A stretch of DNA of 62,890 nucleotides, counting the filler, from Reclinomonas americana ATCC 50394 (Eukaryota), in assembly GCA_048213135.1 (NCBI GenBank). It is 7 parts of 4 records of this genome, joined end to end, with 100 filler letters (N's around TTAATTAATTAA, not from the genome) between each part and the next. Parts side by side here need not be neighbours in the genome. Positions count along the whole stretch, not along the records: positions 1 to 20,490 come from PS015508.1; 6 more parts are not named here. One strand, given 5' to 3'. The position numbers were made by a program, and so were the translations under genes. Shown here one piece after another: positions 2,976 to 20,056 of this stretch. A model generated the notes under the pieces. It saw only the letters and a program-made list of their open reading frames with translations. It had not been told where the DNA came from and searched no databases. Every line of letters begins with the position of its first letter. Within the stretch, counting starts at the first letter, position 1.

Positions 2976-4233
2976 TCAAGACATTGTGCGAGCCTGATCG
3001 ACAACCACGTCAAGATCAAGCGGAAGAACGACTCCGCTTCGTTCATCGACAGCCGCCTCCGAATGCGCAAGCTGGGACTCTGGGCTGCCAGTGGCGCTGG
3101 AGTGCGTTGAGCTGGATCCCGAAGCCACAGAGCCATCGTGATCCTCCTCCACAAGCGCTGCTTCCGAGGCCGCTGAGAGCGGTGGTGGTGGTGGTGGCGG
3201 CTCTGCCGACACAACTGCTCGCTCCGCATCCGGTGTCGTGCACGTGCTCACATGCACACGCTGTGGGGCCTGTCAACTCACACGATGTACACACACAATT
3301 GTATATACCACTCGCACATACCTCCACTATCATTGGTGCTGTCGGCTGCACCATGAACGCGTGCATCAGAGCGTCGCCGGCCAGCAGACGCTCCTCGGGC
3401 TCCATCACCGTCAGCCTCTTGAACAACTTGGCTGCCTGCTGCACGTACTTGGGGCACATCTCCTGCCCAGAGTGGCAGCGGTGCATCGCAGGCACCTCGT
3501 CCAGCATCACTTCTCGCGCCACATCGAGAACCTCACTCGGCTCGAACGCCACGAACCCGTCGCTATCGCCATGCAGCAAGCAGCCCGACATTACCTCCAC
3601 CAGCAGCAGTCCGAGGCACCACGAGTCGGCGGCCGTCGAGTACTGCGGGAGTTCGTCCATGTCGCAGTCCGACACAAAGATCTCAGGCGGCTGCTCACGT
3701 GCACAGGTCATTCTCTCCTTCGAATTCTGCAACAAGAAAAAAACACATCGCAGACATAGATACCTGGTATCCGTACGTCCCAGCACCTCCCGACACCAGA
3801 CCGTCTCTGTTCAGCTTGCGCGCGTGGCCAAAGTCGCCAAGTACGGCTCGTCGGTGCTCACGGCTGTAGAAGACGTTGCCGAGACGAACATCGCCATGCA
3901 CAACACCGCAGCGGTGAGCGTACGCCAGCGCACGCGTCACGTCCGTCATGTACTGCCGCACTTCACTCTCGTCGAATGGATCCGGCACGTCGTTGCCGTA
4001 AAACGGCATGCTGAATCCGAACCAGTCTCGCTTCTGGCGATGCCAGCCGTGCGCGATGACCGACGGCAAGAACGTGACGTCGTCGCTCCCCAACACCCGC
4101 CGCAGCACCACGGCTTCAGCTCGTACGCTGTTCGCCTCGCGTTTCTCCCGACTCCTTCCCCACTTGGTCACAATGCGTCGCTCTGCGACACGCCAACATC
4201 GCTTGCATAAGTCACAAGAAAAATACACACGCG

Positions 4234-4295
<62 letters not shown>

Positions 4296-5344
4296 TACAT
4301 ACATACACATACATACACACATACATACACACACAGCAGTGCACACACAAATGAACGAACCCTTGTCGACCACCACCACAACGTGTGCCTCAGAGCGGAG
4401 GACGTCGACAGTGTCAACACCGGGTCCAGGCAACGGCAACAGTGCATCCTCGTTGAGATTGTCACTCGCCGCCACCTCCTTGTCACTCTTCTTGCCGTCA
4501 TCGAGACAACCAAAGAAGCTTGTCGATGAGATTTCCGCGGGCATCAACGACACCATTTCAACACGAGGAATGTCAACAACAAGTCCTGTGCGGGCCCTCG
4601 CCCCACTCTGGCAGTCGCGAACCAAGTGCGCAGTGTGGCGAACAGCGCGAAATACGCGCAATTGAGCTTGCAGCAGCGACGCCACAGATCCGACTCCTGC
4701 GATAAGCCACACATAAAGTGATCAGCAAGACCAAGTGCGTCACAGTACACACAAATCGAATTTGCACAAAAAAATACGAAACGAAAGCCAGCGACGCCAC
4801 CCTCTTCAAAGTCCCAGGTACCAATCACCGTGACGCGAACGCCAGAGACACGAACATCACCGGACGCCCCGTTGACATTGAAATATGGAGCGAACTGCCA
4901 CAGCGACAGGCCAAGAGGCGCCAACAGCCAGCTGAAGAACACGGCGTCCTGTGCCGTGGAGTTGCCAATCGCAATCAGCAGCGTCTTCAAGCACGCGCAT
5001 CCGTTGACAACGGTCTTCACAAAGTCAGCGTGGAACGCGGTGGTGCTGAACAGGCGCTGAAAGGCGGTGAACGAATACCTGTGCAGACGAGGATAAGGAC
5101 GCATCTTGCAAATAAAAGTGGACTGTGTGAAAAGATGACGCGCACCAAGAATCAACTGCAAGCGCTCCGTACTCCATCTGCATCTCGGCGTCGGCGGTCA
5201 CATAGTTGATGCCAAGCCTGTCGCGGTCGTGGACAAGCAAGTCCGCACGTTTCGCCTTCTTCCCTTCTTGCACTGCGTAGACAAGTATCAGTCTTAGACG
5301 ATCGCAAAGATTCAAACTATGGTATACACACACTCACACACACA

Positions 5345-8145: not shown

Positions 8146-11100
8146 TCAATGATTTCTTCGACCAACCATGTTTCGCAGGTGCCTCTGCAGGTCTTCAAAC
8201 CAGAAACCACGGCACGTCTCCATCACGGCACGGATAATCTGCATCTTTTCTTCGTCGATGCCCAGCAGCTTGTTATCATTGAGGATGGCCACCCGACAGT
8301 CGGCCTCTGTCAGTAGTGATTTACCGGACGGCAAAAGAACGGCATTGATTTTTTGGACCTACAACAAGTCGTCAACAGAAATGGCACCACAATTAACTCT
8401 GCATGTGACGCACCTGGAGAGCCCACGTCTCGCGCACCTTGCGAGCTACCTTGGTCACCAGTGCTGCACCCTCGAGTCCGTCGTCCATCTGCGAGTCTAT
8501 TACGTCGAGGATGACTTCATCAGCCTTGTTCAACCTGCGACGATATACAATAGACAGGTCAAACAATGCGGAGCCATCACTGCTTCCTCCCTCGCAGTTC
8601 ACTCACAATACGAAGCGATTGTCGAACGATGGCGTCTTGCTCAGCTGCGCAAAGGAGAACAGGCAAAGTGAATTTTAACTAAAACTCGTTTGCACACATG
8701 GAGCAGCGTCTTCTCACTGTTTGAACGACTGTGGCCTCATCCATGTTGATGTCCATGAGACTGAATATGACGTACGTGAAAGAAGACAGCTGCATCCGAC
8801 TTTAGTATCGAGATTGCAAAAAGTGAAAGAAACATGGCAATCGTACCTGAGACATGTCGCGGAATGCCTTTCGAACGCTCTCACTCACATCATTGCCACC
8901 CGGCACGTCCACGACTCGAATGCGCCTATCGATCTCAGGAATGTCGACAAGATGAACGGATGGCTGCAAGAATAGTATGTCATTCAGCAGTGTCATTTTG
9001 CACGTCGACAGAAATGACATCACCTGCTGCGTGCGCTGATACTGAAGAGCGCCGTGTACCAAGTTAAGGGTCGGGAACAGCTTGTTAAGCGTGAACGACT
9101 TGCCCGTCTGTGCGGACCGACAAACACGATCATCAACTATTGTGGCAGTTATCTTACTCCCTGCGGAACAACAACGCAACATTCGACGTGCCACAAAAGG
9201 CAATCGCCTCAAAGCAAATCAATGCTTCGCGCAAGTCGGCCACTGGCGCTACTGTCAGCAGCTGGTGCAGTATCATGGCTCGCTGCGGGGGAGCGATCCG
9301 ACGCAGACGCGATCCTGTACCAAAAGAAATATGGTCATCAGAAGCAAGTGCCTGACGCCAGCAGCACAAGCGAGTGACGACTGCAAACCTGGCTTTGTCA
9401 ACGCCTTCCAAGTTTCGTCGTCGTCATCCACCGCCCTCTGCAACCAATCTCGCAATTCATCTCGTGGAGCCGTCGCGCTGGGACGCCCTGGAACGATTCG
9501 ATCCAGAAGCTCCACCAGAGCTCGTTCAGCACGCAGGGTGCTTCCACCTACATTGTCTCGCAAGTCCGTTCTGATGTGCTCGTCTACGTTCAAGTCGTTG
9601 CATAGCAACAACATTCGCGACTGATGCCCGTATGTCCACGCATACTCACGATAATGGACGTCATTATGCACAGCGACAGGAAGCCGCCACACTCGGCGAA
9701 CCGCACTGATGAAGGCACTTGGCTTAAACACCAAGGGGACTGCGCGCAATCAAAAATTAGGTGCGCGAGTGAATGCACACTCGAGCTCCTTTTAAAAACT
9801 GTGATCACCTACACCGAGAACTCCAAACACCGCCTGCCCCAGAGTGTCAGCACCTTAATCATCGATGCAGGAGAACCGAATCATCGACTTACCCCCGAAG
9901 CAAACAACCCATATGGGACGAACTTGGCGGCAATATGTCCCACTTTCTGCCAGCTTGTGTTCTCGATGCACAATGGCTGAAGCAGTATCCAGAATGAGCA
10001 CAGTTGATATCGCTTGGAAACGGCAGCCATCTTCACTGAGACGCAACGACAAAGATTGAAAAGTAGCGCTCCATCGCGATAAACCAGGAGCTGAACCTGT
10101 TGGTCGCATGAGATGCAAACCAACAACAGCAGCGAAGATGTAATCCGACGTTACCGCAGTGGAACACAGTCTTGTTGGAGCACTGGCCGATTGGAGCGCC
10201 AGATGTTGGACCACGGCGGAGCATCTTCATCTTTTGTGGTACACTGCAACTCAGTAAGAAAATTTTGCGTTAAAAGGAAGCATACGTGCGCAACGGTCTG
10301 CAGCAGCCACATCGTCCGGATCTCCGCTAGCTACACCAGCGGCGTCGGCATGTAAATGCGTCTCAGCACCGTGGCGAATGTGAAAGTCAATGTCGGCCAA
10401 GCGAAGTTCGCTTTGCGGACACAGCTGATACATGGTCTCCTGGTGAAACCCAGACAGTGCAGCAAAGTTCGTGTCCACAGAGGCTAGGCGCTCCTCAATA
10501 TCTTCCTTGAACGCAATCGGCAATGTTGATTTGGAATTCCTGTCCTTTTTTGTTTTGAGCAGTCGAAGCACCGTGGTAAGTGTGCCACAAACGTGCTGCA
10601 TAAAAACGAAGTGAACAGAAGCAGCCAATACGCGAACTTTGAGTGGCACGAACTCACCGATGGAATCTCCTCAGATGCTGTCCACTGACGATTCCATGCA
10701 TTCATCATTCCAGTTACGTGTTCCTCAACGAACCGTAAATGCCGTTGTGCTGGCACAGGATCCTCAAGTCGCGGATTGCTGTCGATTGCACGTCGCTCCT
10801 CGCCGACTGCATCGCCAAGATGCTGCAAGTAGCAGCCAGCAGCCAGCAAGTAGTCGATCGGAATTAAGGCCACCATATCGCGGATGGCAGACAGCAAATC
10901 CTGCATGCAACAGCACACAATTAGTATCAACATGTTTTTCTGTCCTGCGTGTCACTGACCATACACGTGGAGTCCTGTTGGTGCCCTTGAATGCCTTGGA
11001 GCGGTCGGCGGGGCTGATCTTGGCGCACGAGCTCGACAATTCGAATCGCCCGAATAGTCCGGAGAGCAAGAAGCACAAGCTCGACTGGATCAAGTTTTGA

Positions 11101-13778
11101 GAAGGCTGCTTCGCGCTCGGCAGTACGCTGCTCTCGAATCTGATCACGCGAGACACAAATATATCGGAAAGTCAACAATCAGGAGCCTTCTCTAGACGAA
11201 TGGACGTACCTCGAGGAGCACTTCGTCGCGCGCATAGGCCTCATTAGAAAACACGGTGAACACTGAAGCGTACATCGGGAGCTGCAACGGCTGATCGGGA
11301 TTGGCATTGGAGGGCAACAAATCACTCGCTTCAGCTCTGAATGCAGCGAATCTGTGCGTTTGCTTGTCGCCCGCTGGCACCAGGAAGTGGCGAATGGGAT
11401 CGCCTGCCTCCGATTCGGCCAGCAGAGCAATCTGCGTCGGCAGCACTAGTAATTAGGACGAAGAAACAAGATATCACGCCACAAGAATGGACTCAACTCC
11501 GGACACAAATCCAATGTTTTCTCCGTCGACCGTGGCACGAAGTTCGCGAGTGTCTTGTTGGTAAAACACACGCAGCCGCTCGACCTTAACAAGAGGCTCA
11601 GTGATTCGACGTGGACGTGAACCGACAAGACGCTCCCACCCTGGAGTGGACCGCGTCGATTCCGCACGTGCTCGAGTAACGAGTGTCTCGCAATAGATGG
11701 TAGGAACGTGCTACATGTGGCGACTAAGCAAGCGGTACTCTCATTAGACACGCGTCTTCCTCGTCACAAAAGTACCTGAGATAGAATGAGCTGCAAGTGC
11801 TGCTCGTGAGCGGGTTCGAATGGAGCATCGCGCCGAGCACGAGCTCCGAGTGCTGCACGCGACCGAACGGCAGAACGTGCCCAAAGCTCGAATATGGCGA
11901 CACTGTTTACCGCCGAAATGGCGTCCAGTGGTGATTCGGAATCAATGACAGCCCCGAGACCAAGGCATCGCACGGGTATTGCACTGCTGGTAGGGAAGCC
12001 AGCAAGCTTGGCAATCACATGGTTGAAGTCAGCAGGGCAAGTGGCGGCAAAGCAATCAAGCAATGCACTGAAAGGAACGCGATTAGTAGAAAGACGATAA
12101 GATGCTTCGTGCACCTCTTAGGCGACTACTCACGGATCGACGTCGTCGTTAGAAGCGATAACTTGATTGTACAATACCATTTGTTGCAAGCGCTCGGCTG
12201 CGGATGTCTGCATGCACAGTACGTAAGCGAGAAGGAAAGCAAATATCAACATGAATGTCTGCAAGCTCACCAACGAACTCGTCGAGGCGACCAGCGGCGC
12301 TTGCAAGCTCACCTGTTTGTTTGCTCGAACACACAACGGTATAAGCGTGGTGATACGAGGCATAGCGTCTTGCTGCAGTGAAACGTGCAGCGAAAGGGAC
12401 TGCAGTGCATCCGGAAGCGTTTGTCGCTCAGAGAAGAACAGAGGTGCGCCGAAACTGACACATCGAAGCCGCCTCTCCTCCAGCAGCGGGGGCTCAACAA
12501 GCTGCGCGTGGTGTCAATATCACAGAATGCTTTGCCACGAGACGCTCCCAACGAACCACACCACAGGCTTCAAGGCAGCGGCACAGGACGACCTCCGCAA
12601 TACAGCCAGAAGTCGAAAACCCGGTCAGCACCATGCGCCGAGTACCCGCAACAGTTGGGTCCACGAGAAAGTTGATCAGAGTCTGAGTATCAAACGAGCG
12701 ACCAATGTCGTCCACCACTGCCATAGCAGATCGCATCATGAGCGTCGTCATTCGCACGACAGATGCAAGCAGTGTCTACTCCACCTGTGGAGCCGTCTTG
12801 ACGCCGCGAGAGAAGGGAGACGCAGGACGCTCGGCGAACTTCGTCATCGCTTGCTCCAAACGAGGCCGCATGGAAGTGGAAAGCCACCACGTAAATTACC
12901 TCTCGATTCAGAAGCTCGCATTCGCATAGCCACCACGTCAGTCGTTGCTGATCACGGTCCAGAGCCTCTGCTTGAGTGTCGGCACCATCCACGTCACCAA
13001 CCACTGACGGCTATGCGTGTTCGCGCGAAATCTCTGTTGAGAACACACAGGAGTACAAGCCCAACAGAAAATCCACACGCACCTCGCACTTGTAGACTGC
13101 ACGAATGCGACGGGCGAATGCGCCATACAAGTGGCCTGGAGAACACGCGGTGTCTAAATCGACCTGACCTGCCACCAGTGCACAGCACAGCGCACAGAAT
13201 GCCAGCTCTTCGTGGCCAAATGAGGAGTTTGCCTGTGCCACTGCAGATGCGGTGGCGACACCGGCAGCAACTCTGAGAGCAGCCGAACGAGCAGCAAGCA
13301 AGTTGGCACCCACTGCATCGCCGTGGTCGAAGAGTGGATTGCCAGAACGCCAGCACACTTCTGCAGATGTGAAACACACATCAGAGATCGCGACAGCCTG
13401 CTTCTCTCATCAACTCAAACCCAACCATCGTCAGTTGCAAACTCTGCATCGTCCCGACGAGCGGCCACAAAGCGGAACCGCGGGTTGTTGATGCAAAGAA
13501 ACTATTGTTCGCACAATGCAGCACATTGTGGGTTTAGCGAGAAAGAGAGAAAGAGAGAGAGAGATGAACGCACGTGCTGTTGCACATCCAAAGCGGGAAC
13601 CCATTGATGATCATTTGCGTCGCCGACTGCAGGGAATGCGACTTGCAGCTGAAGTGTGTGGACAGGGGGCGGAGCAGCAGATGCCGAAGCTGCGCAACAG
13701 GTAACGTGAGGCACACTCTCACTCACTCACTCTCCCCGTGCTCCTTTCTTCTTCTTCTTCTTCTTTCTTCGCTCCCTC

Positions 13779-13820
<42 letters not shown>

Positions 13821-13969
13821 CCGCTCTCTGCTGCAAGTTTCGAGTGCAAGTACTCGGCAAGAAGCGCCAGTGAATTTTCCGTTGTCACTTGCTGGACAGT
13901 GGCCGCGTCCACCGTCACAAGCTTCCGCGATTCACTTGCATTGTCAGTGACCAACAGCACGCGCTTCAT
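8146..13969 (-). CDS. Lipase-3-like (degenerate elbow) to TRAFAC GTPase fusion protein, paralog B
   Basis: Start MKRVLLVTDN at 13969. Lipase-fold motifs FGHEELAFCALCCALV, IYVVAFH, MVLTGFSTSGCIAEVVL (12622-12605), RCVSFGAPLF, QQDAMPRI. GTPase G1 AFCGTSN|TGKS (spliced, about 9194-9097), G2 QRTQQ, G3 DVPG (8909), G4 LNKAD (about 8530). Ends ...ADCRVAILNDNKL...RNH* at 8146. Many short GT-AG introns. Confidence 0.8.
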
Positions 13970-14263
13970 AGACGCACAAAGGTGTTCGCTCAGTAGAGTG
14001 CAGTCGACAAGTCGTCTTTGTCGAAAAACAAAGGAAATCTGACGACATAATCGTTTTGGTGCATGCTGTGTCGCGGTTTGTATTCTCGTGGCGGGATCAG
14101 CGTGATGGGCCATAGGTACTCGCTGGCCTCATGCGTACAACTTCACACACGCTTGTACAAGCACCAGTCGCGTTTGCCGCGTTCAGTTGCATGCGCAGCT
14201 AATTATAAACCTGTCATACACGACTCGTGATCACACACCTGCAGTTGTTCGTCGGCTGCGAGA
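13970..14263. promoter_or_regulatory. Putative bidirectional promoter between the two lipase-GTPase paralogs
   Basis: About 294 bp separate the divergent ATGs (13969 minus, 14264 plus). TATAAA at 14204-14209. Confidence 0.5.
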
Positions 14264-14558
14264 ATGCCACTTGCCAAGCGCTGTGTGGTGCAACTGGACG
14301 TTGGAGACGACTCAGAGCCGCAGAAATGGAAGTTGTCACTTGCATTGGAGTCCGCGGAAGCCATTTCGTTCACTCAGCTGACAGCACTTCTCATCGACGC
14401 GGTGCGGCAGCGTGCGCCAGACCTGGTGCCATCGCCAGATGTGTGTGTGGTCACCTTCTGGCTCGCTGACTTCGACGACTGGGTGAGCCTGGACGAGGAC
14501 TCGTGGCAGGATGTTGCGTGCGTTTTTGTCAGACGCATTTCTCTGCTTGTCTCTCTCT

Positions 14559-14622
<64 letters not shown>

Positions 14623-17600
14623 ACGCACAGGTGATTGCTTGTGAAGCACCCCGCTTTCGCGTTTCTCTCCGTCGTGTCTTGCCACTGGCTCCGCTGTCTG
14701 CCATCGCCGTTGCTGCCGATTCAAGGACAGATGCCACCCCGGCACTGCTGTCATTATCTTCATCATCGGCGTCCGCATCATCGGCCTCCGCTGCTGCCGG
14801 CATTGCGTACTCAAGAGCATTTGGAGCACAAGACGATGACGCTTCAGGAGACGAGCTGAATGTCCTCGCCTTGCGCCTGGAGTTCCCCGCCGACGAGGAT
14901 GATGACGATGTCGAGGGAGGCGCAGACGCGGGTTCTGATCGCGTGCCCCCTGCAGATGGTGCGCGCCTATTTCGTGACGCCAACGTGATGCTGCCTGCAC
15001 TCACTCCGGTGTCGTTGCAGAGGCTGATTATGAGCACATGCTGACTTTCACGGGGATGCGCTCGTCGGTGGTGATCACTGACGCATCGCAACCAACATTC
15101 ACCGGCTTGCTGGCACCTCCACTGCCAGGCACCGGTGCATCAGCGTCCGCAGATGTTGCTTGTTCATCGGCCGCAGCGGCAGCAGTCAATGTGTCTGGTT
15201 CATCAGGCGTGGTATCTGCGAGTGCTCGCGTGCGACCGGCTGAGCGTAATCACGAGTCTCAGGCCCACAGTCAATCCCGTCGACTGGTGTCCAACAGGCG
15301 TGATGCCGCTGGTGGTCGCCTGGCCTCAGGCGTCGGAGAAGGCCACATGTTTGCCGGCCACGAACTCCTCAACGCCGCGTTACTGTCGGAGCTCGTCTAC
15401 GTCGATGAACCGGATCTGACGTTGCTGCGGCAACGCTACCCCATCAACCACACCATTCTCAACATTCGACTCGGAGTAATGGTGTGTCAGGAGCGTCTGC
15501 ATGGTGTGCTGTGTCTCTATCCACCAGTGTCACGTGTCACTAACTGTGTAAACGTGTACGTGGCAGCGGTTGCAAGGGACGATCCGCTGGCTGATTGCTG
15601 AGTGTTTCGACCCGGCAGTTGCTGCCTCGTCTGACTTGGAGGCCAGCAAGTACATCATCATTGCCTTCCAGGGGACGGACGCAGCCGAGATTCAACACTG
15701 GCTGACCAACGTCAATGCCGCTCAGACTAGGGGGTACGACGGTGGCCTACATCGCGGTACGCAATCATAAGTTTTATTAGTGATTCTCGGTTTCCAGCTC
15801 AGCGCACTGAATGAGTGCCTCTATTGGCTCAGGCTTTTCCAATGCGTCTGCGGCATTTGACATGCAGATAATATCCGGCCTTGTGTGTGACACCAAGGTG
15901 CCGACGATCCTCACGGGTCACTCTCTCGGTGGCGGTATCGCGCAGGCACTTTACGTCCGCTCCGCGCGAGTGAGTATTTTGCCCCAGCATTGATGATGAC
16001 CGTCCGATCACTCACCTGCTGTGTTCGCAGGCAATGCCGGGCTCAGTGTTCGTCGATGGGCTGTTGCGCTGTTTGACATTTGGTGCTCCTCTTGTTGCCG
16101 GTTTGTACGTGCCTCGGTAGAGTGTTGGTGCATGGTTGTTTGTTTCACAACTCAGTTGCTCGTGTGGCAGACCCGCGACTGGCGGCCAATGTTGAAAACA
16201 TCGCGGGTGGTGCGGTGGAGGCTGGCATGTGCCATATGGTTGACGATAGTGACCTTGTGCCGCGGTTGCTTCTTCTGTGCGACGCTGTGCGCGCAGCCGT
16301 TCTCGCAAATTCCAACATTATTACCGATGGGCAGCTGGTATGATGGTTTCGCCAGAATTTGCTGCTCGCACTATCCCTTTGATTTACTTGGCATCTCTCC
16401 AGCAACGCGTGCTCGAATTCGTTGGTGAACTCATTTATCGTGGAACACTGGCTGTTGCGGTGAATAGTGCTCACTCTCAACGATGCATCAACATTGTTTT
16501 AATCATTTCTTGCTGAACGTGCTGCCATGTGTCGCAGGGGCACTTTGGAATTCCGCCTCAGATAGTGGATGCTGCATACAGTCTGCTATCCAGAATGGTG
16601 CAGTCGTTTGCACGGCAGTATGCTCCACCTTACGAGCTCATGGGGTCGTACATTTTCGTTGGCGACCTTGGTAGCGTGCCCGCTACTGTTGCCAAAGCGA
16701 CAGCGCGCGAGCGCCTGCGTCAAATCCAGTCAAACTTCGCCACGGTCATGGGTCTGGAATCGTCTGCAGCAGAGACAAAGATGGAAGCGGTGCAGATGAT
16801 GGTCGCAAAGGTGAGCAGATGATTGTGAAACGCTTGCTCTACGCTTTGCTCACTTCTCGGCTCGTTTTACAGCACCGCATGCCAAATTACGTGGACAAGG
16901 CGCGTCGTATTGTTGAGCTCGACAGTGAGCTCCGGCCTCATGCGTACCGACTCCCGGTTGAGCCCACGCAAATCATGCCTCGATTCAGCAAACTTCGGCT
17001 TGTTCTCCGCAACAGGATGTTGATGCTCACGATTCAGGGATTCAACTTGCTGATGGTGATGGAGGTGTGTCTATCGCATCGTTCGTGCGCAGAGTTGTTG
17101 CCTTCTCTCATTCATCAGTTGCCGTTGTCTTCGGCTGTGTGCAGGCTCACCTCTTCCAACATGCAGCACGGATGGCATTAACGCAACAGCGGTCAAGCAG
17201 TGAGGTCGTTCTCGCGGCGCACTGCAGTCATCCGTTCCGTGACGGCGACGTTGCTCCGGTGGAGATCATCTTGCATCACAGAAATCCGCGGTCAGAGGCT
17301 GCGACGGGGTTGACGTTTAATGTTCGCGTGGAGGTGAGCTGCTCCCAACTGTTGTGTTTGACTCACGGAGAGACGTACTCAATGTATCAATTTTTTGCAG
17401 GTCATTACCGACTCAAGAAAGAAGGAGCAGTCGATGAATATGACACCATCAGAATTGGTACAGCTTGCATTTGCCATCATGCGGTCTGCGGTTGTTGCCG
17501 ACGGTCGCAATGCCAGTGGAGATCGGGAGAATCCAGCAGCCCTGGTCGTCATTCGTGTGAGTGGTTCACGTTCTATCTCTCCTTGCATGCTGCCTACAGC

Positions 17601-20056
17601 AGCGCTGTTCCCGCGGCCTAGCCTCACGCTGTCCTTCGTCACCGACAGAGAATGATTGAGTTAGTCAACGATGTCATCAAGCATGTGCCAGTGGATTTTA
17701 TTCCACTCATGTTTGCCGCCATGCTTCAAGACGAGAGGTTGATGGCTACGCCTGCAGCAATGCGGCTGCTGCGCACGCTCATTTTCGACACCATGAATCG
17801 ATATCGGCAGGTGAGGAACTGTTCCAATTGAGAATTAGCCACTTAGTGATTCACATGCGTGCACCGCGGGCAGATGATCTTTGGCAATTCGACTCTTGTC
17901 CTCAAGATCGTGGCCACTGTCACAGACTCCTTTGATCAAAACGTCCGAGTGCTGTTCGAAAACGACCTGGAGAGCGCACTGACGGCCGCATACGTCTCAA
18001 AAGTGCCCTTCTTTAGCACGCACACCGTGTTCGAACTGGACGATTTCATTCCTCCCCTTACGGAGGAGATTGTGGTTGAATGGGCGAGGCGCCCCGGCAA
18101 TCCGCAAGCGGATCTTGGAATCCCACCGGAGTTTCGTCTTTGTTGACGATCTTATGATCACAGCTCACTTCTTTGCTGAGCATTCCACTTACACCCTCGA
18201 CGTTGTGCAGGAGTCTGATGCTGTTGGGTCTTGTGGAGGTGTTTGACAGTCTTGCGTTCATGCCTCGTCTTCGCCGAACTGTCTGTTACGTCGACTCTCG
18301 GAAGATGCGTCTGCTTCCACATTCACACAATGTTCACGAGAGCTGTCCCACAGGGAATGCGATTTGGACGTCGACATTGAAGTCGCCTCTGTATGCTCTC
18401 CTTGGAGCTCTGTCGATTCCGATGGTGGTGCTGGGCCCTCTTTCTGCCGGTATGCAGTCTTGGTGATCCGAATTCGTCAGGAGTATCTGACGTGAACTGG
18501 TGCTCAGGTTTGAAGTATCCCGTGGACAAGGCGGGAGCGAAGCGAATTCTCAGCGAGAGTGTTGCCGCCCCGCGGTTTATCGTGGAAGACATGTCAACGG
18601 TTGGCCTCGGACAAGCAGAGGTGAGCCGCGAACGACGCTTGCTTGCGTCAGCAGCGTGTAATGCTTCTCCTCAACCGCACTCTGCAGGGTCCAGGCAAAG
18701 GAGCGCACAACACGTATCAAGGTCGATTGTGGCTGTGTGCTGAGGGAGTTGTTGGCAAAGACGAACTGGACGATCTGAGAGGTCGGGGGGACGTGTGCGC
18801 GGCAGAGGCCGCTGTGGCTAACGCAGTCAACTCTCTGGAGCACCGTGGTCCCGATCGCGTCGACAATATTCATTCCGACGTAGAATGGAAGCAGTTCACC
18901 AAGGAATGTTTCGTACCAGAGCAATGCGATTCGCGACCACTGCTTCAGGAAACTAACACGCGCGCGCAGCGAGTACCCTGCGACGCCTCGTAACATGTCA
19001 GCGAAAGTCGTACCTGGCATACATGCGCTTCCAGCGCTCAGTTGGCGAGCTGCGACAAGAACTCATCAACTTCCAGGCAGCAGGCTTCTTTGGATCGTCT
19101 ACAGTTCCGTGGAGCATCTGCACTGTTTTCATCTGCGGAAATGCTCACGCAACTGTTGGCCAGGTTGGCAAGTCATACACCATGTGGCAATTGTACTCTG
19201 AACAGATTTCCCGCATCGGAGGCGGTGATGCGAGTGCTCGCACGCAGGAGGTTTGTTACCTGTCTTTCACGGTGCGCACGACTATTTTGTTCTCATATAG
19301 GTGTGCACAACAGCCAGCCATGTATGCAATCAACACCGCTGCGAATCACGTGATCCATCTCTTTGACCTCCCGGGATACAATGACATTACCGACGCGGTG
19401 CGTCAGAGCGTTCGCGCAATTACTCGGGTGCGTGAGGTCGATGTCTCTGCTTTTCATCATCAACGGCCCCGCACTGATGATTCTTTGCGGGCGATGACTG
19501 TGCGATGCAGGTCCTCTCACATGTTGTTGTCATGCTCCCGCTTGCCGATGTAGCTCTCGACGAGTTGAACATTGTTCGCTTCTTGTTTGGCGACCAAGTG
19601 CCAGACGGTCACCGCAAACTCGTCCTCTTTAATAAGGCCGACATCATCATTGAGTCCATCTTGGAAGAGAGACAGGCGATGATGCCTGGCAGCAACGTCA
19701 ATGCGCGCGAACTGGCCACCGAAGCCGTCGCCGCTCTTCGACGGCAACTCACTGCGCAAATCGGCCGGCTCAATCGTCACTGTGGCAGACCGGTGTGTAC
19801 ACGGAGAGTGCGTGGTGAATGCAATGTGCGCTGACATCGTCCGCGCTTCCTGTGTGCACAGCAAGCAATCGACGTTGCGAACTGTCGCATGTCGATTATG
19901 AACGACCGACGTGTGCAGGCCATTCCTCTCCTGCGTGAGGTCGTCGAGATGGTGCGCGAGAGCATTGAAATCTGGTCGCCGAATGATCTGCGCGTTTGGC
20001 TGGAGAGAGCCTTGGATCCTCACGCCCACTACGATGATGACGGAGGCGTGCTGTGA
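14264..20056 (+). CDS. Class-3 lipase (intact Ser-Asp-His triad) to TRAFAC GTPase fusion protein, paralog A
   Basis: Start MPLAKRCVVQL at 14264. Lipase motifs GHELLNAALLSELVY, YIIIAFQGT, GGLHRG, ILTGHSLGGGIA (15916-15930), RCLTFGAPLVAG, DSDLVPRL (16251), HRMPNY (16873). GTPase G1 GFFGSST|VGKS (intron 19104-19163), G2 ARTQE, G3 DLPG (19365), G4 FNKAD (19631). Ends ...ANCRMSIMNDRRV...GGVL* at 20056. Confidence 0.85.

Follow-up and report, generated by a model that had tools for sequence, protein, structure and literature searches.

The window analysed here, a stretch of 62,890 nucleotides (filler included) from Reclinomonas americana ATCC 50394 (GenBank assembly GCA_048213135.1), carries two large predicted genes, called A and B below, in its first part (positions 1 to 20,490, record PS015508.1). 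Both encode the same order of domains: the N-terminal domain is followed by a class-3 lipase domain and a long middle region, and a P-loop GTPase forms the C-terminus. The lipase domain takes up roughly residues 310–700 in A and 170–540 in B. The subject of this work is the lipase domain of gene B, which has lost several motifs of its family although its predicted catalytic triad is complete. The two genes and the space between them are as follows:

14264 to 20056, plus strand: gene A, curated model with 22 exons and 1412 amino acids, ATG at 14264, stop codon ending at 20056
8146 to 13969, minus strand: gene B, curated model with 24 exons and 1348 amino acids, ATG at 13969, stop codon ending at 8146
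13970 to 14263, no strand: spacer of 294 bp between the divergent start codons, presumed to be a shared promoter region

The exon models were curated by hand from the sequence, with the paralog and the intron positions shared by A and B as guides; they are predictions with no cDNA behind them. Models produced by automatic exon chaining were dropped, because they retained in-frame introns and used introns of 45 nt. In the curated models every intron is of the GT-AG type and there are no internal stop codons. Intron lengths range from 58 to 118 nt in A and from 51 to 176 nt in B. Six introns lie at an identical aligned column and in the same phase in both genes: the one that splits HRG from F in the lipase domain, the one immediately upstream of the catalytic His, one within the middle region, one inside the P-loop, one after RTQ(E/Q) and one after the G3 exon. 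As modelled, A and B are distant paralogs that lie head to head and are divergently transcribed, and the small distance between their start codons suggests a shared bidirectional promoter. A tblastn search of the whole window with 22 pieces of A and B found no third copy. Some introns are free of stops and a multiple of three in length (19251 to 19313 on the plus strand; 8964 to 9023, 12208 to 12312 and possibly 9584 to 9649 on the minus strand). The reading frame runs through such introns, so exon calling by open frame adds 20–35 spurious residues.

The class-3 lipases (Pfam Lipase_3, PF01764) include fungal enzymes of the Rhizomucor/Thermomyces type and bacterial enzymes. The lipase domain of A has every hallmark of this family:

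15651 to 15677, plus strand: YIIIAFQGT, strand and oxyanion Gly-Thr
15750 to 15756 and 15833 to 15837, plus strand: HRG and F, the HxGF motif split by an intron
15913 to 15933, plus strand: TGHSLGG, with the Ser438 codon at 15922 to 15924
16079 to 16093, plus strand: FGAPL, the FGxP turn
16248 to 16268, plus strand: SDLVPRL, with the Asp504 codon at 16251 to 16253
16873 to 16890, plus strand: HRMPNY, with His643 and Tyr648, opening exon 10 after a phase-0 intron

The initial annotation had credited A with the full class-3 signature (AFQGT, HRG, GHSLGG, DLVPR and HRMPNY), and all of these strings were located. The family was represented by 63 distinct bacterial Lipase_3 proteins. Two phylum samples contributed their 30 best-scoring loci each, and a few other proteins were added; no Lipase_3 reference came from E. 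coli K-12 or from the control genomes. All hallmarks of these 63 members, (R/Q)G(T/S), HxGF, GHSLGG, FGxP, D-x-V-P and H-x4-Y, are present in A. When single exons were searched against Pfam, the best match of A exon 5 was Lipase_3 (E 0.0043, 17.4 bits, with a cut-off of 22 bits), and the spliced protein matches the family profiles described below.

The corresponding part of B is found at the following positions, where Nu denotes the nucleophile:

11483 to 13230, minus strand: lipase-like domain, from the end of exon 3 to exon 9
12870 to 12899, minus strand: VIYVVAFHFH, counterpart of YIIIAFQGT in A, with HFH in place of QGT
12605 to 12628, minus strand: LTGFSTSG, nucleophile elbow, with the Ser303 codon at 12616 to 12614, His replaced by Phe at Nu-1 and Gly by Ser at Nu+2
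12439 to 12453, minus strand: FGAPL, the FGxP turn
12355 to 12375, minus strand: QQDAMPR, with the Asp367 codon at 12369 to 12367, aligned to the family Asp
11794 to 11811, minus strand: AHEQHL, which aligns upstream of the A His, with TKMEAV of A
11693 to 11710, minus strand: HVPTIY, with His508 and Tyr513, opening exon 9, counterpart of HRMPNY in A

HMMER places LTGFSTSG, FGAPL and QQDAMPR of B on the family elbow, FGxP turn and Asp, and Ser303 and Asp367 are aligned by both HMMER and blastp. His508 is placed by a common phase-0 intron and by the H-x4-Y pattern. Exon 8 of B ends with LQLILSQ, a phase-0 intron of 65 nt follows (11775 to 11711), and exon 9 begins with HVPTIY; the phase-0 introns before HVPTIY in B and before HRMPNY in A fall in one aligned column. 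The predicted Ser-Asp-His triad of B (Ser303, Asp367 and His508) is complete. A strict pseudoenzyme has lost a catalytic residue; in B the supporting motifs alone are gone. The elbow reads G-F-S-T-S in place of G-x-S-x-G, AFHFH stands for AFQGT at the RG[TS] motif, and neither of the two candidate splice models contains an H-x-G-F. The initial annotation had described a broken GxSxG with the Ser kept (GFSTSG), a retained Asp (QDAMPR) and no evident HRG motif, and our data agree with it on these points. It had also regarded the catalytic His as doubtful, with AHEQHL as the candidate. This part has to be revised, because the true His is His508 of HVPTIY, which lies in the next exon and just outside the range then considered.

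The lipase-like domain of B departs from the family pattern much more than that of A. With a profile made from the 63 references, A scores 71.6 bits and B 6.7 bits, and the best of 400 shuffles 1.9 bits; an earlier profile of 33 sequences gave 59.1 bits for A, 3.8 bits for B and 3.5 bits for the best of 400 shuffles. In Pfam, exon 6 of B, which carries QQDAMPR, matches positions 90–137 of Lipase_3 (E 0.065, 13.6 bits, again with a cut-off of 22 bits). The match of B to the Lipase_3 profile is below significance, and its homology rests on A. In blastp, spliced A and spliced B are identical at 34 of 132 positions of the lipase core (E 2e-5, 36.6 bits) and at 61 of 223 positions of the GTPase (E 6e-24, 97.1 bits), so that the GTPase is the better conserved of the two. 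A local alignment of the lipase segments of A and B scores 87; none of 300 shuffles reached this value (mean 36, standard deviation 5.3, maximum 56). These alignments indicate that the lipase domain of B is by descent a true but strongly diverged member of the family. The state of the conserved columns in the references, A and B is listed below:

Gly of RG[TS]: references 63/63, A Gly, B Phe (by the AF anchor)
Thr or Ser after the Gly of RG[TS]: references 63/63, A Thr, B His
H-x-G-F: references 62, 63 and 62 of 63, A HRGF, B no counterpart
Elbow Gly at Nu-2: references 63/63, A Gly, B Gly
Elbow His at Nu-1: references 62/63, A His, B Phe
Nucleophile Ser: references 63/63, A Ser, B Ser
Gly at Nu+2: references 62/63 with one Ala, A Gly, B Ser
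Ala at Nu+4: references 61/63, A Gly, B Cys
Pro of FGxP: references 61/63, A Pro, B Pro
Asp: references 62/62, A Asp, B Asp
His: references 43/43, A His, B His
Tyr at +5 from the His: references 41/42, A Tyr, B Tyr

By our own count of 15 assessable near-invariant columns, A keeps 12 and B keeps six. All three triad residues are among the six kept by B, and the hypergeometric chance of this is about 0.04. Compared with known class-3 lipases, B keeps the Ser, Asp, His, FGAP and H-x4-Y but RG[TS] and HxGF are missing from it and GHSLG is replaced by GFSTS. Both A and B differ from these lipases by the C-terminal GTPase fusion and by an insertion of about 130–140 residues between the catalytic Asp and His (16338 to 16810 on the plus strand; 12312 to 11776 on the minus strand). 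No family was detected in the insertion of either protein; a lid or some regulatory subdomain may be encoded there.

The codon usage of B is that of a coding gene. A codon table trained on A gave the lipase exons of B +0.18 bits per codon in frame and -0.23 and -0.46 off frame. With the same table, every part of B was positive in frame and negative off frame, and the introns were negative in all frames. The identity between A and B is only about 26–27%, and together with the open frame of B this indicates that the frame has been preserved over a long period. The lack of stops and frameshifts, the GT-AG introns and the coding codon bias argue that B is not an old pseudogene. The best explanation of these features is that selection has maintained B as an intact paralog of A. 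The initial annotation had found the B exons that it examined to be open and had argued against a pseudogene. In the predicted model this extends to the whole gene, with 24 exons, 1348 codons and 23 GT-AG introns, and B is at least not an obvious pseudogene.

In alpha/beta hydrolases, the form of the oxyanion hole and of the nucleophile elbow depends on the Gly that precedes the oxyanion residue and on small residues on either side of the nucleophile. Because these are the residues that differ in B, the changes plausibly weaken catalysis. The reading that we favour, with a probability of about 0.5, is that B has weakened or lost lipase activity and retains its pocket. The class-3 lipase domain of B would have drifted from the consensus with the triad, the FGxP turn and the H-x4-Y pattern kept. 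The hydrolase pocket would persist, and its oxyanion hole and nucleophile elbow would be compromised or remodelled. The outcome might be weak or lost lipase activity, or an altered substrate or ligand. This pocket would be borne on a protein whose C-terminal GTPase retains all its nucleotide-binding motifs, and the architecture suggests that the GTPase may gate or localise the lipase domain. A and B might also act together, the divergent spacer of 294 bp and the common architecture being the only hints of this.

Several points weigh against a weakened or lost activity. The sequence FGAS lies six residues past AFHFH in B, and given an insertion in B at this place it could be the source of the oxyanion Gly. 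The alignment of A and B in exon 4 does not decide this, because it is not significant alone (its score was reached by 123 of 1000 shuffles). The replacement of AFQGT by AFHFH, as claimed in the initial annotation, is thus confirmed as far as the string at 12899 to 12870 is concerned, but the correspondence of the residues is weakly aligned and has FGAS as a competitor for the Gly. The triad is complete and the residue at Nu+2 is a small Ser, where one reference has Ala, so B may be active. The invariance of the columns listed above is inflated, because the references are bacterial and are best-scoring loci. Finally, the exon models are unverified, and they are least sure between the Asp and His exons of B (12312 to 12134).

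Some of these points lead to the reading that B is a serine hydrolase with full activity, in which the elbow is a variant, G-x-S-x-S, and the oxyanion hole is constructed in another way. Such an enzyme would be neofunctionalised rather than a pseudoenzyme, and its substrate might be a different one. Ser303, Asp367 and His508 are kept despite an identity of 26% to A, and so are H-x4-Y and FGAPL. The residue at Nu+2 is small, and a natural Ala occurs there in 1 of 63 references. FGAS offers a possible alternative Gly. However, B lacks both RG[TS] and HxGF, each of which is present in 62–63 of the 63 references, and its profile score is near noise. We consider full activity of B rather unlikely on balance.

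A weakened lipase domain in B would be joined to a GTPase domain, whose motifs in both genes are as follows:

19092 to 19175, plus strand: P-loop of A, GSST and VGKS, split by an in-frame phase-0 intron of 60 nt (19104 to 19163)
9096 to 9192, minus strand: P-loop of B, GTSN and TGKS, split by a phase-0 intron of 73 nt (9180 to 9108)
19365 to 19376 and 19631 to 19642, plus strand: G3 (DLPG) and G4 (NKAD) of A
8909 to 8898 and 8530 to 8519, minus strand: G3 (DVPG) and G4 (NKAD) of B

In A and B alike the intron follows the fourth residue of the P-loop. Splicing gives a canonical P-loop in both genes, GSSTVGKS in A and GTSNTGKS in B, and without splicing both are non-canonical: the P-loop of A read straight through the intron gives GNAHATVGQVGKS, and B changes frame. 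Since the intron of A is 60 nt long and in frame, no stop interrupts the unspliced open reading frame (ORF), and a false Walker A motif of non-canonical form appears in it. An automatic reading based on ORFs would mis-call both GTPases because of these split P-loops. A frameshift of 13 nt before the P-loop of B was considered and rejected when the intron of 73 nt was recognised there. After splicing, both genes have the motifs of TRAFAC-class GTPases, G1 GxxxxGK[ST], G3 DxxG and G4 NKxD, and both have a conserved Thr in RTQ(E/Q)P. The earlier statement that G1–G4 are perfect in both genes holds for G1, G3 and G4 after splicing, but not for the P-loops in their unspliced form. With the P-loop intron removed, the alignment between the GTPases of A and B rises to the 61/223 (E 6e-24) given above. 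A and B share G1, G3 and G4 with the TRAFAC-class P-loop GTPases (Dynamin_N, MMR_HSR1, AIG1 and septin-like), and the match to single families is weak: local bacterial Dynamin_N and MMR_HSR1 profiles gave 4.6–12.9 bits, compared with at most 4.9 bits for 400 shuffles. Atlas feature matches for the GTPase were assorted GTPase fragments with low scores (0.75–0.80). Searches with single exons of the GTPase gave no Pfam match and no PDB sequence match, and on these results the GTPase could be assigned to no family.

The plant immune regulators EDS1, PAD4 and SAG101 resemble A and B in having a class-3 lipase fold that is at least partly without demonstrated lipase activity, and in being paralogs that vary in the amount of catalytic machinery kept. 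The initial annotation had proposed, by analogy with the EDS1 family, that B might be a catalytically impaired sensor, decoy or regulator and A the executor. On this reading B could be non-catalytic and serve A as a regulator or decoy, in a pair comparable to EDS1 with PAD4 or SAG101; the contact between A and B would be made by their GTPase or N-terminal domains. The head-to-head genes with their spacer of 294 bp, the one architecture of A and B and the better conservation of the GTPase than of the lipase between them (97.1 vs 36.6 bits) are all consistent with such a partnership. A complete triad is also compatible with it, in that triad residues of the EDS1 family can be important in signalling although no lipase activity is known. 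One study reports that the triad residues of Solanaceae EDS1, but not those of Arabidopsis EDS1, matter for immunity (10.1101/2021.12.15.472806). The partner domain of A and B is nevertheless a GTPase, and a scan of 41 exon products of A and B with E up to 5 detected no EP domain or other relevant Pfam match, although a per-exon scan has low power. The Lipase_3 match of exon 6 was the sole Pfam match of any B exon at E 0.05–0.1 or better. EDS1 and PAD4 keep the G-x-S-x-G motif, which is changed in B. SAG101 lacks the catalytic triad, whereas B keeps the triad and has a changed elbow and changed oxyanion motifs. A non-catalytic regulatory or decoy role of B is improbable in our view, and a weakened pocket of lipase origin is still preferred.

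One intron inside the lipase-like domain of B bears on the integrity of the gene:

12208 to 12312, minus strand: intron 6 of B, 105 nt, in frame, holding an out-of-frame match to mini-exon 8 of A

The stretch from 12281 to 12264 matches the 57-nt mini-exon 8 of A (16414 to 16431) at 16 of 18 bases, with a score of 26 that was reached by none of 500 shuffles. It could be a relic or an alternative exon, it could stem from gene conversion, or it could mark a frameshift that is hidden in B. The in-phase model of B skips it by means of strong GTGAGC...CAG and GTGAGT...CAG sites. The match would fit a frameshifted former exon, as expected if B were a recently inactivated or unexpressed duplicate or if its model concealed an interruption between the exon of the Asp and that of the His, but this is the least probable of the explanations considered, given the complete in-phase model with strong splice sites around the stretch, the 1348 stop-free codons and a codon bias that is of the coding type throughout B.

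Searches for relatives of A and B were limited to single exons, several of the queries held intron-encoded residues, and we make no claim that the family stands alone. Word-index homolog searches with ORFs or exons of A and B found no relatives; as evidence this is weak, because two of the queries included residues encoded by introns. A full HMMER search with an alignment of the A and B GTPases returned four matches, all of them spurious and to repeat proteins such as PKD and Ig. The P-loop was disrupted in that alignment by two introns, in frame or retained, and the blank outcome therefore means little. A metagenome scan with patterns derived partly from intron residues gave no match. With a clean pair of G3 exons the same type of scan gave a single match, which proved to be an unrelated bacterial contig (L001), and the only match of a viral scan lay in an ORF for a coiled coil and is due to chance. 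Single exons used as queries against PDB sequences gave nothing useful.

Other features of the locus were observed near the two genes. Exon 1 of A (14264 to 14512, plus strand), when folded alone, was predicted to form a beta-beta-alpha-beta-beta arrangement that ends in an acidic tail, DFDDWVSLDEDSWQD; the confidence was low, with a mean pLDDT of 67.8. By eye it looked PB1-like or ubiquitin-like. This was not supported, as there was no Pfam match and no Foldseek match in the PDB at E ≤0.001. The first introns of both genes contain (GA)n and (CA)n microsatellites (about 13700 to 13820 in B and 14540 to 14630 in A). At about 3000 to 4500 on the minus strand there are ORF pieces with protein-kinase-like motifs (HRCGVVHGDVRLGNV; DFGHARKL). 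They look like part of a neighbouring gene that is unrelated to A and B and has introns rich in (CA)n.

By analogy with paired immune effectors, it can be imagined that A and B are two subunits of an undescribed eukaryotic GTP-gated lipase. In such a machine A would supply the catalytic lipase, and a target membrane would be the place where the two C-terminal GTPases pair. The degenerate pocket of B would bind a lipid or small-molecule cue through its Ser-Asp-His residues. We regard this as a long shot.

Our literature search found no paper that joins Lipase_3 with a GTPase or dynamin domain, and thus no description of a lipase–GTPase fusion. B would be a variant of a known theme inside this fusion. 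The locus also holds annotation traps that alter the functional reading, namely a catalytic His that lies in the next exon and P-loops that are interrupted by introns, of which that of A is in frame. If the pocket of B is non-catalytic and yet conserved, it would be a second independent repurposing of the class-3 lipase fold besides plant EDS1, here wired to a GTPase.

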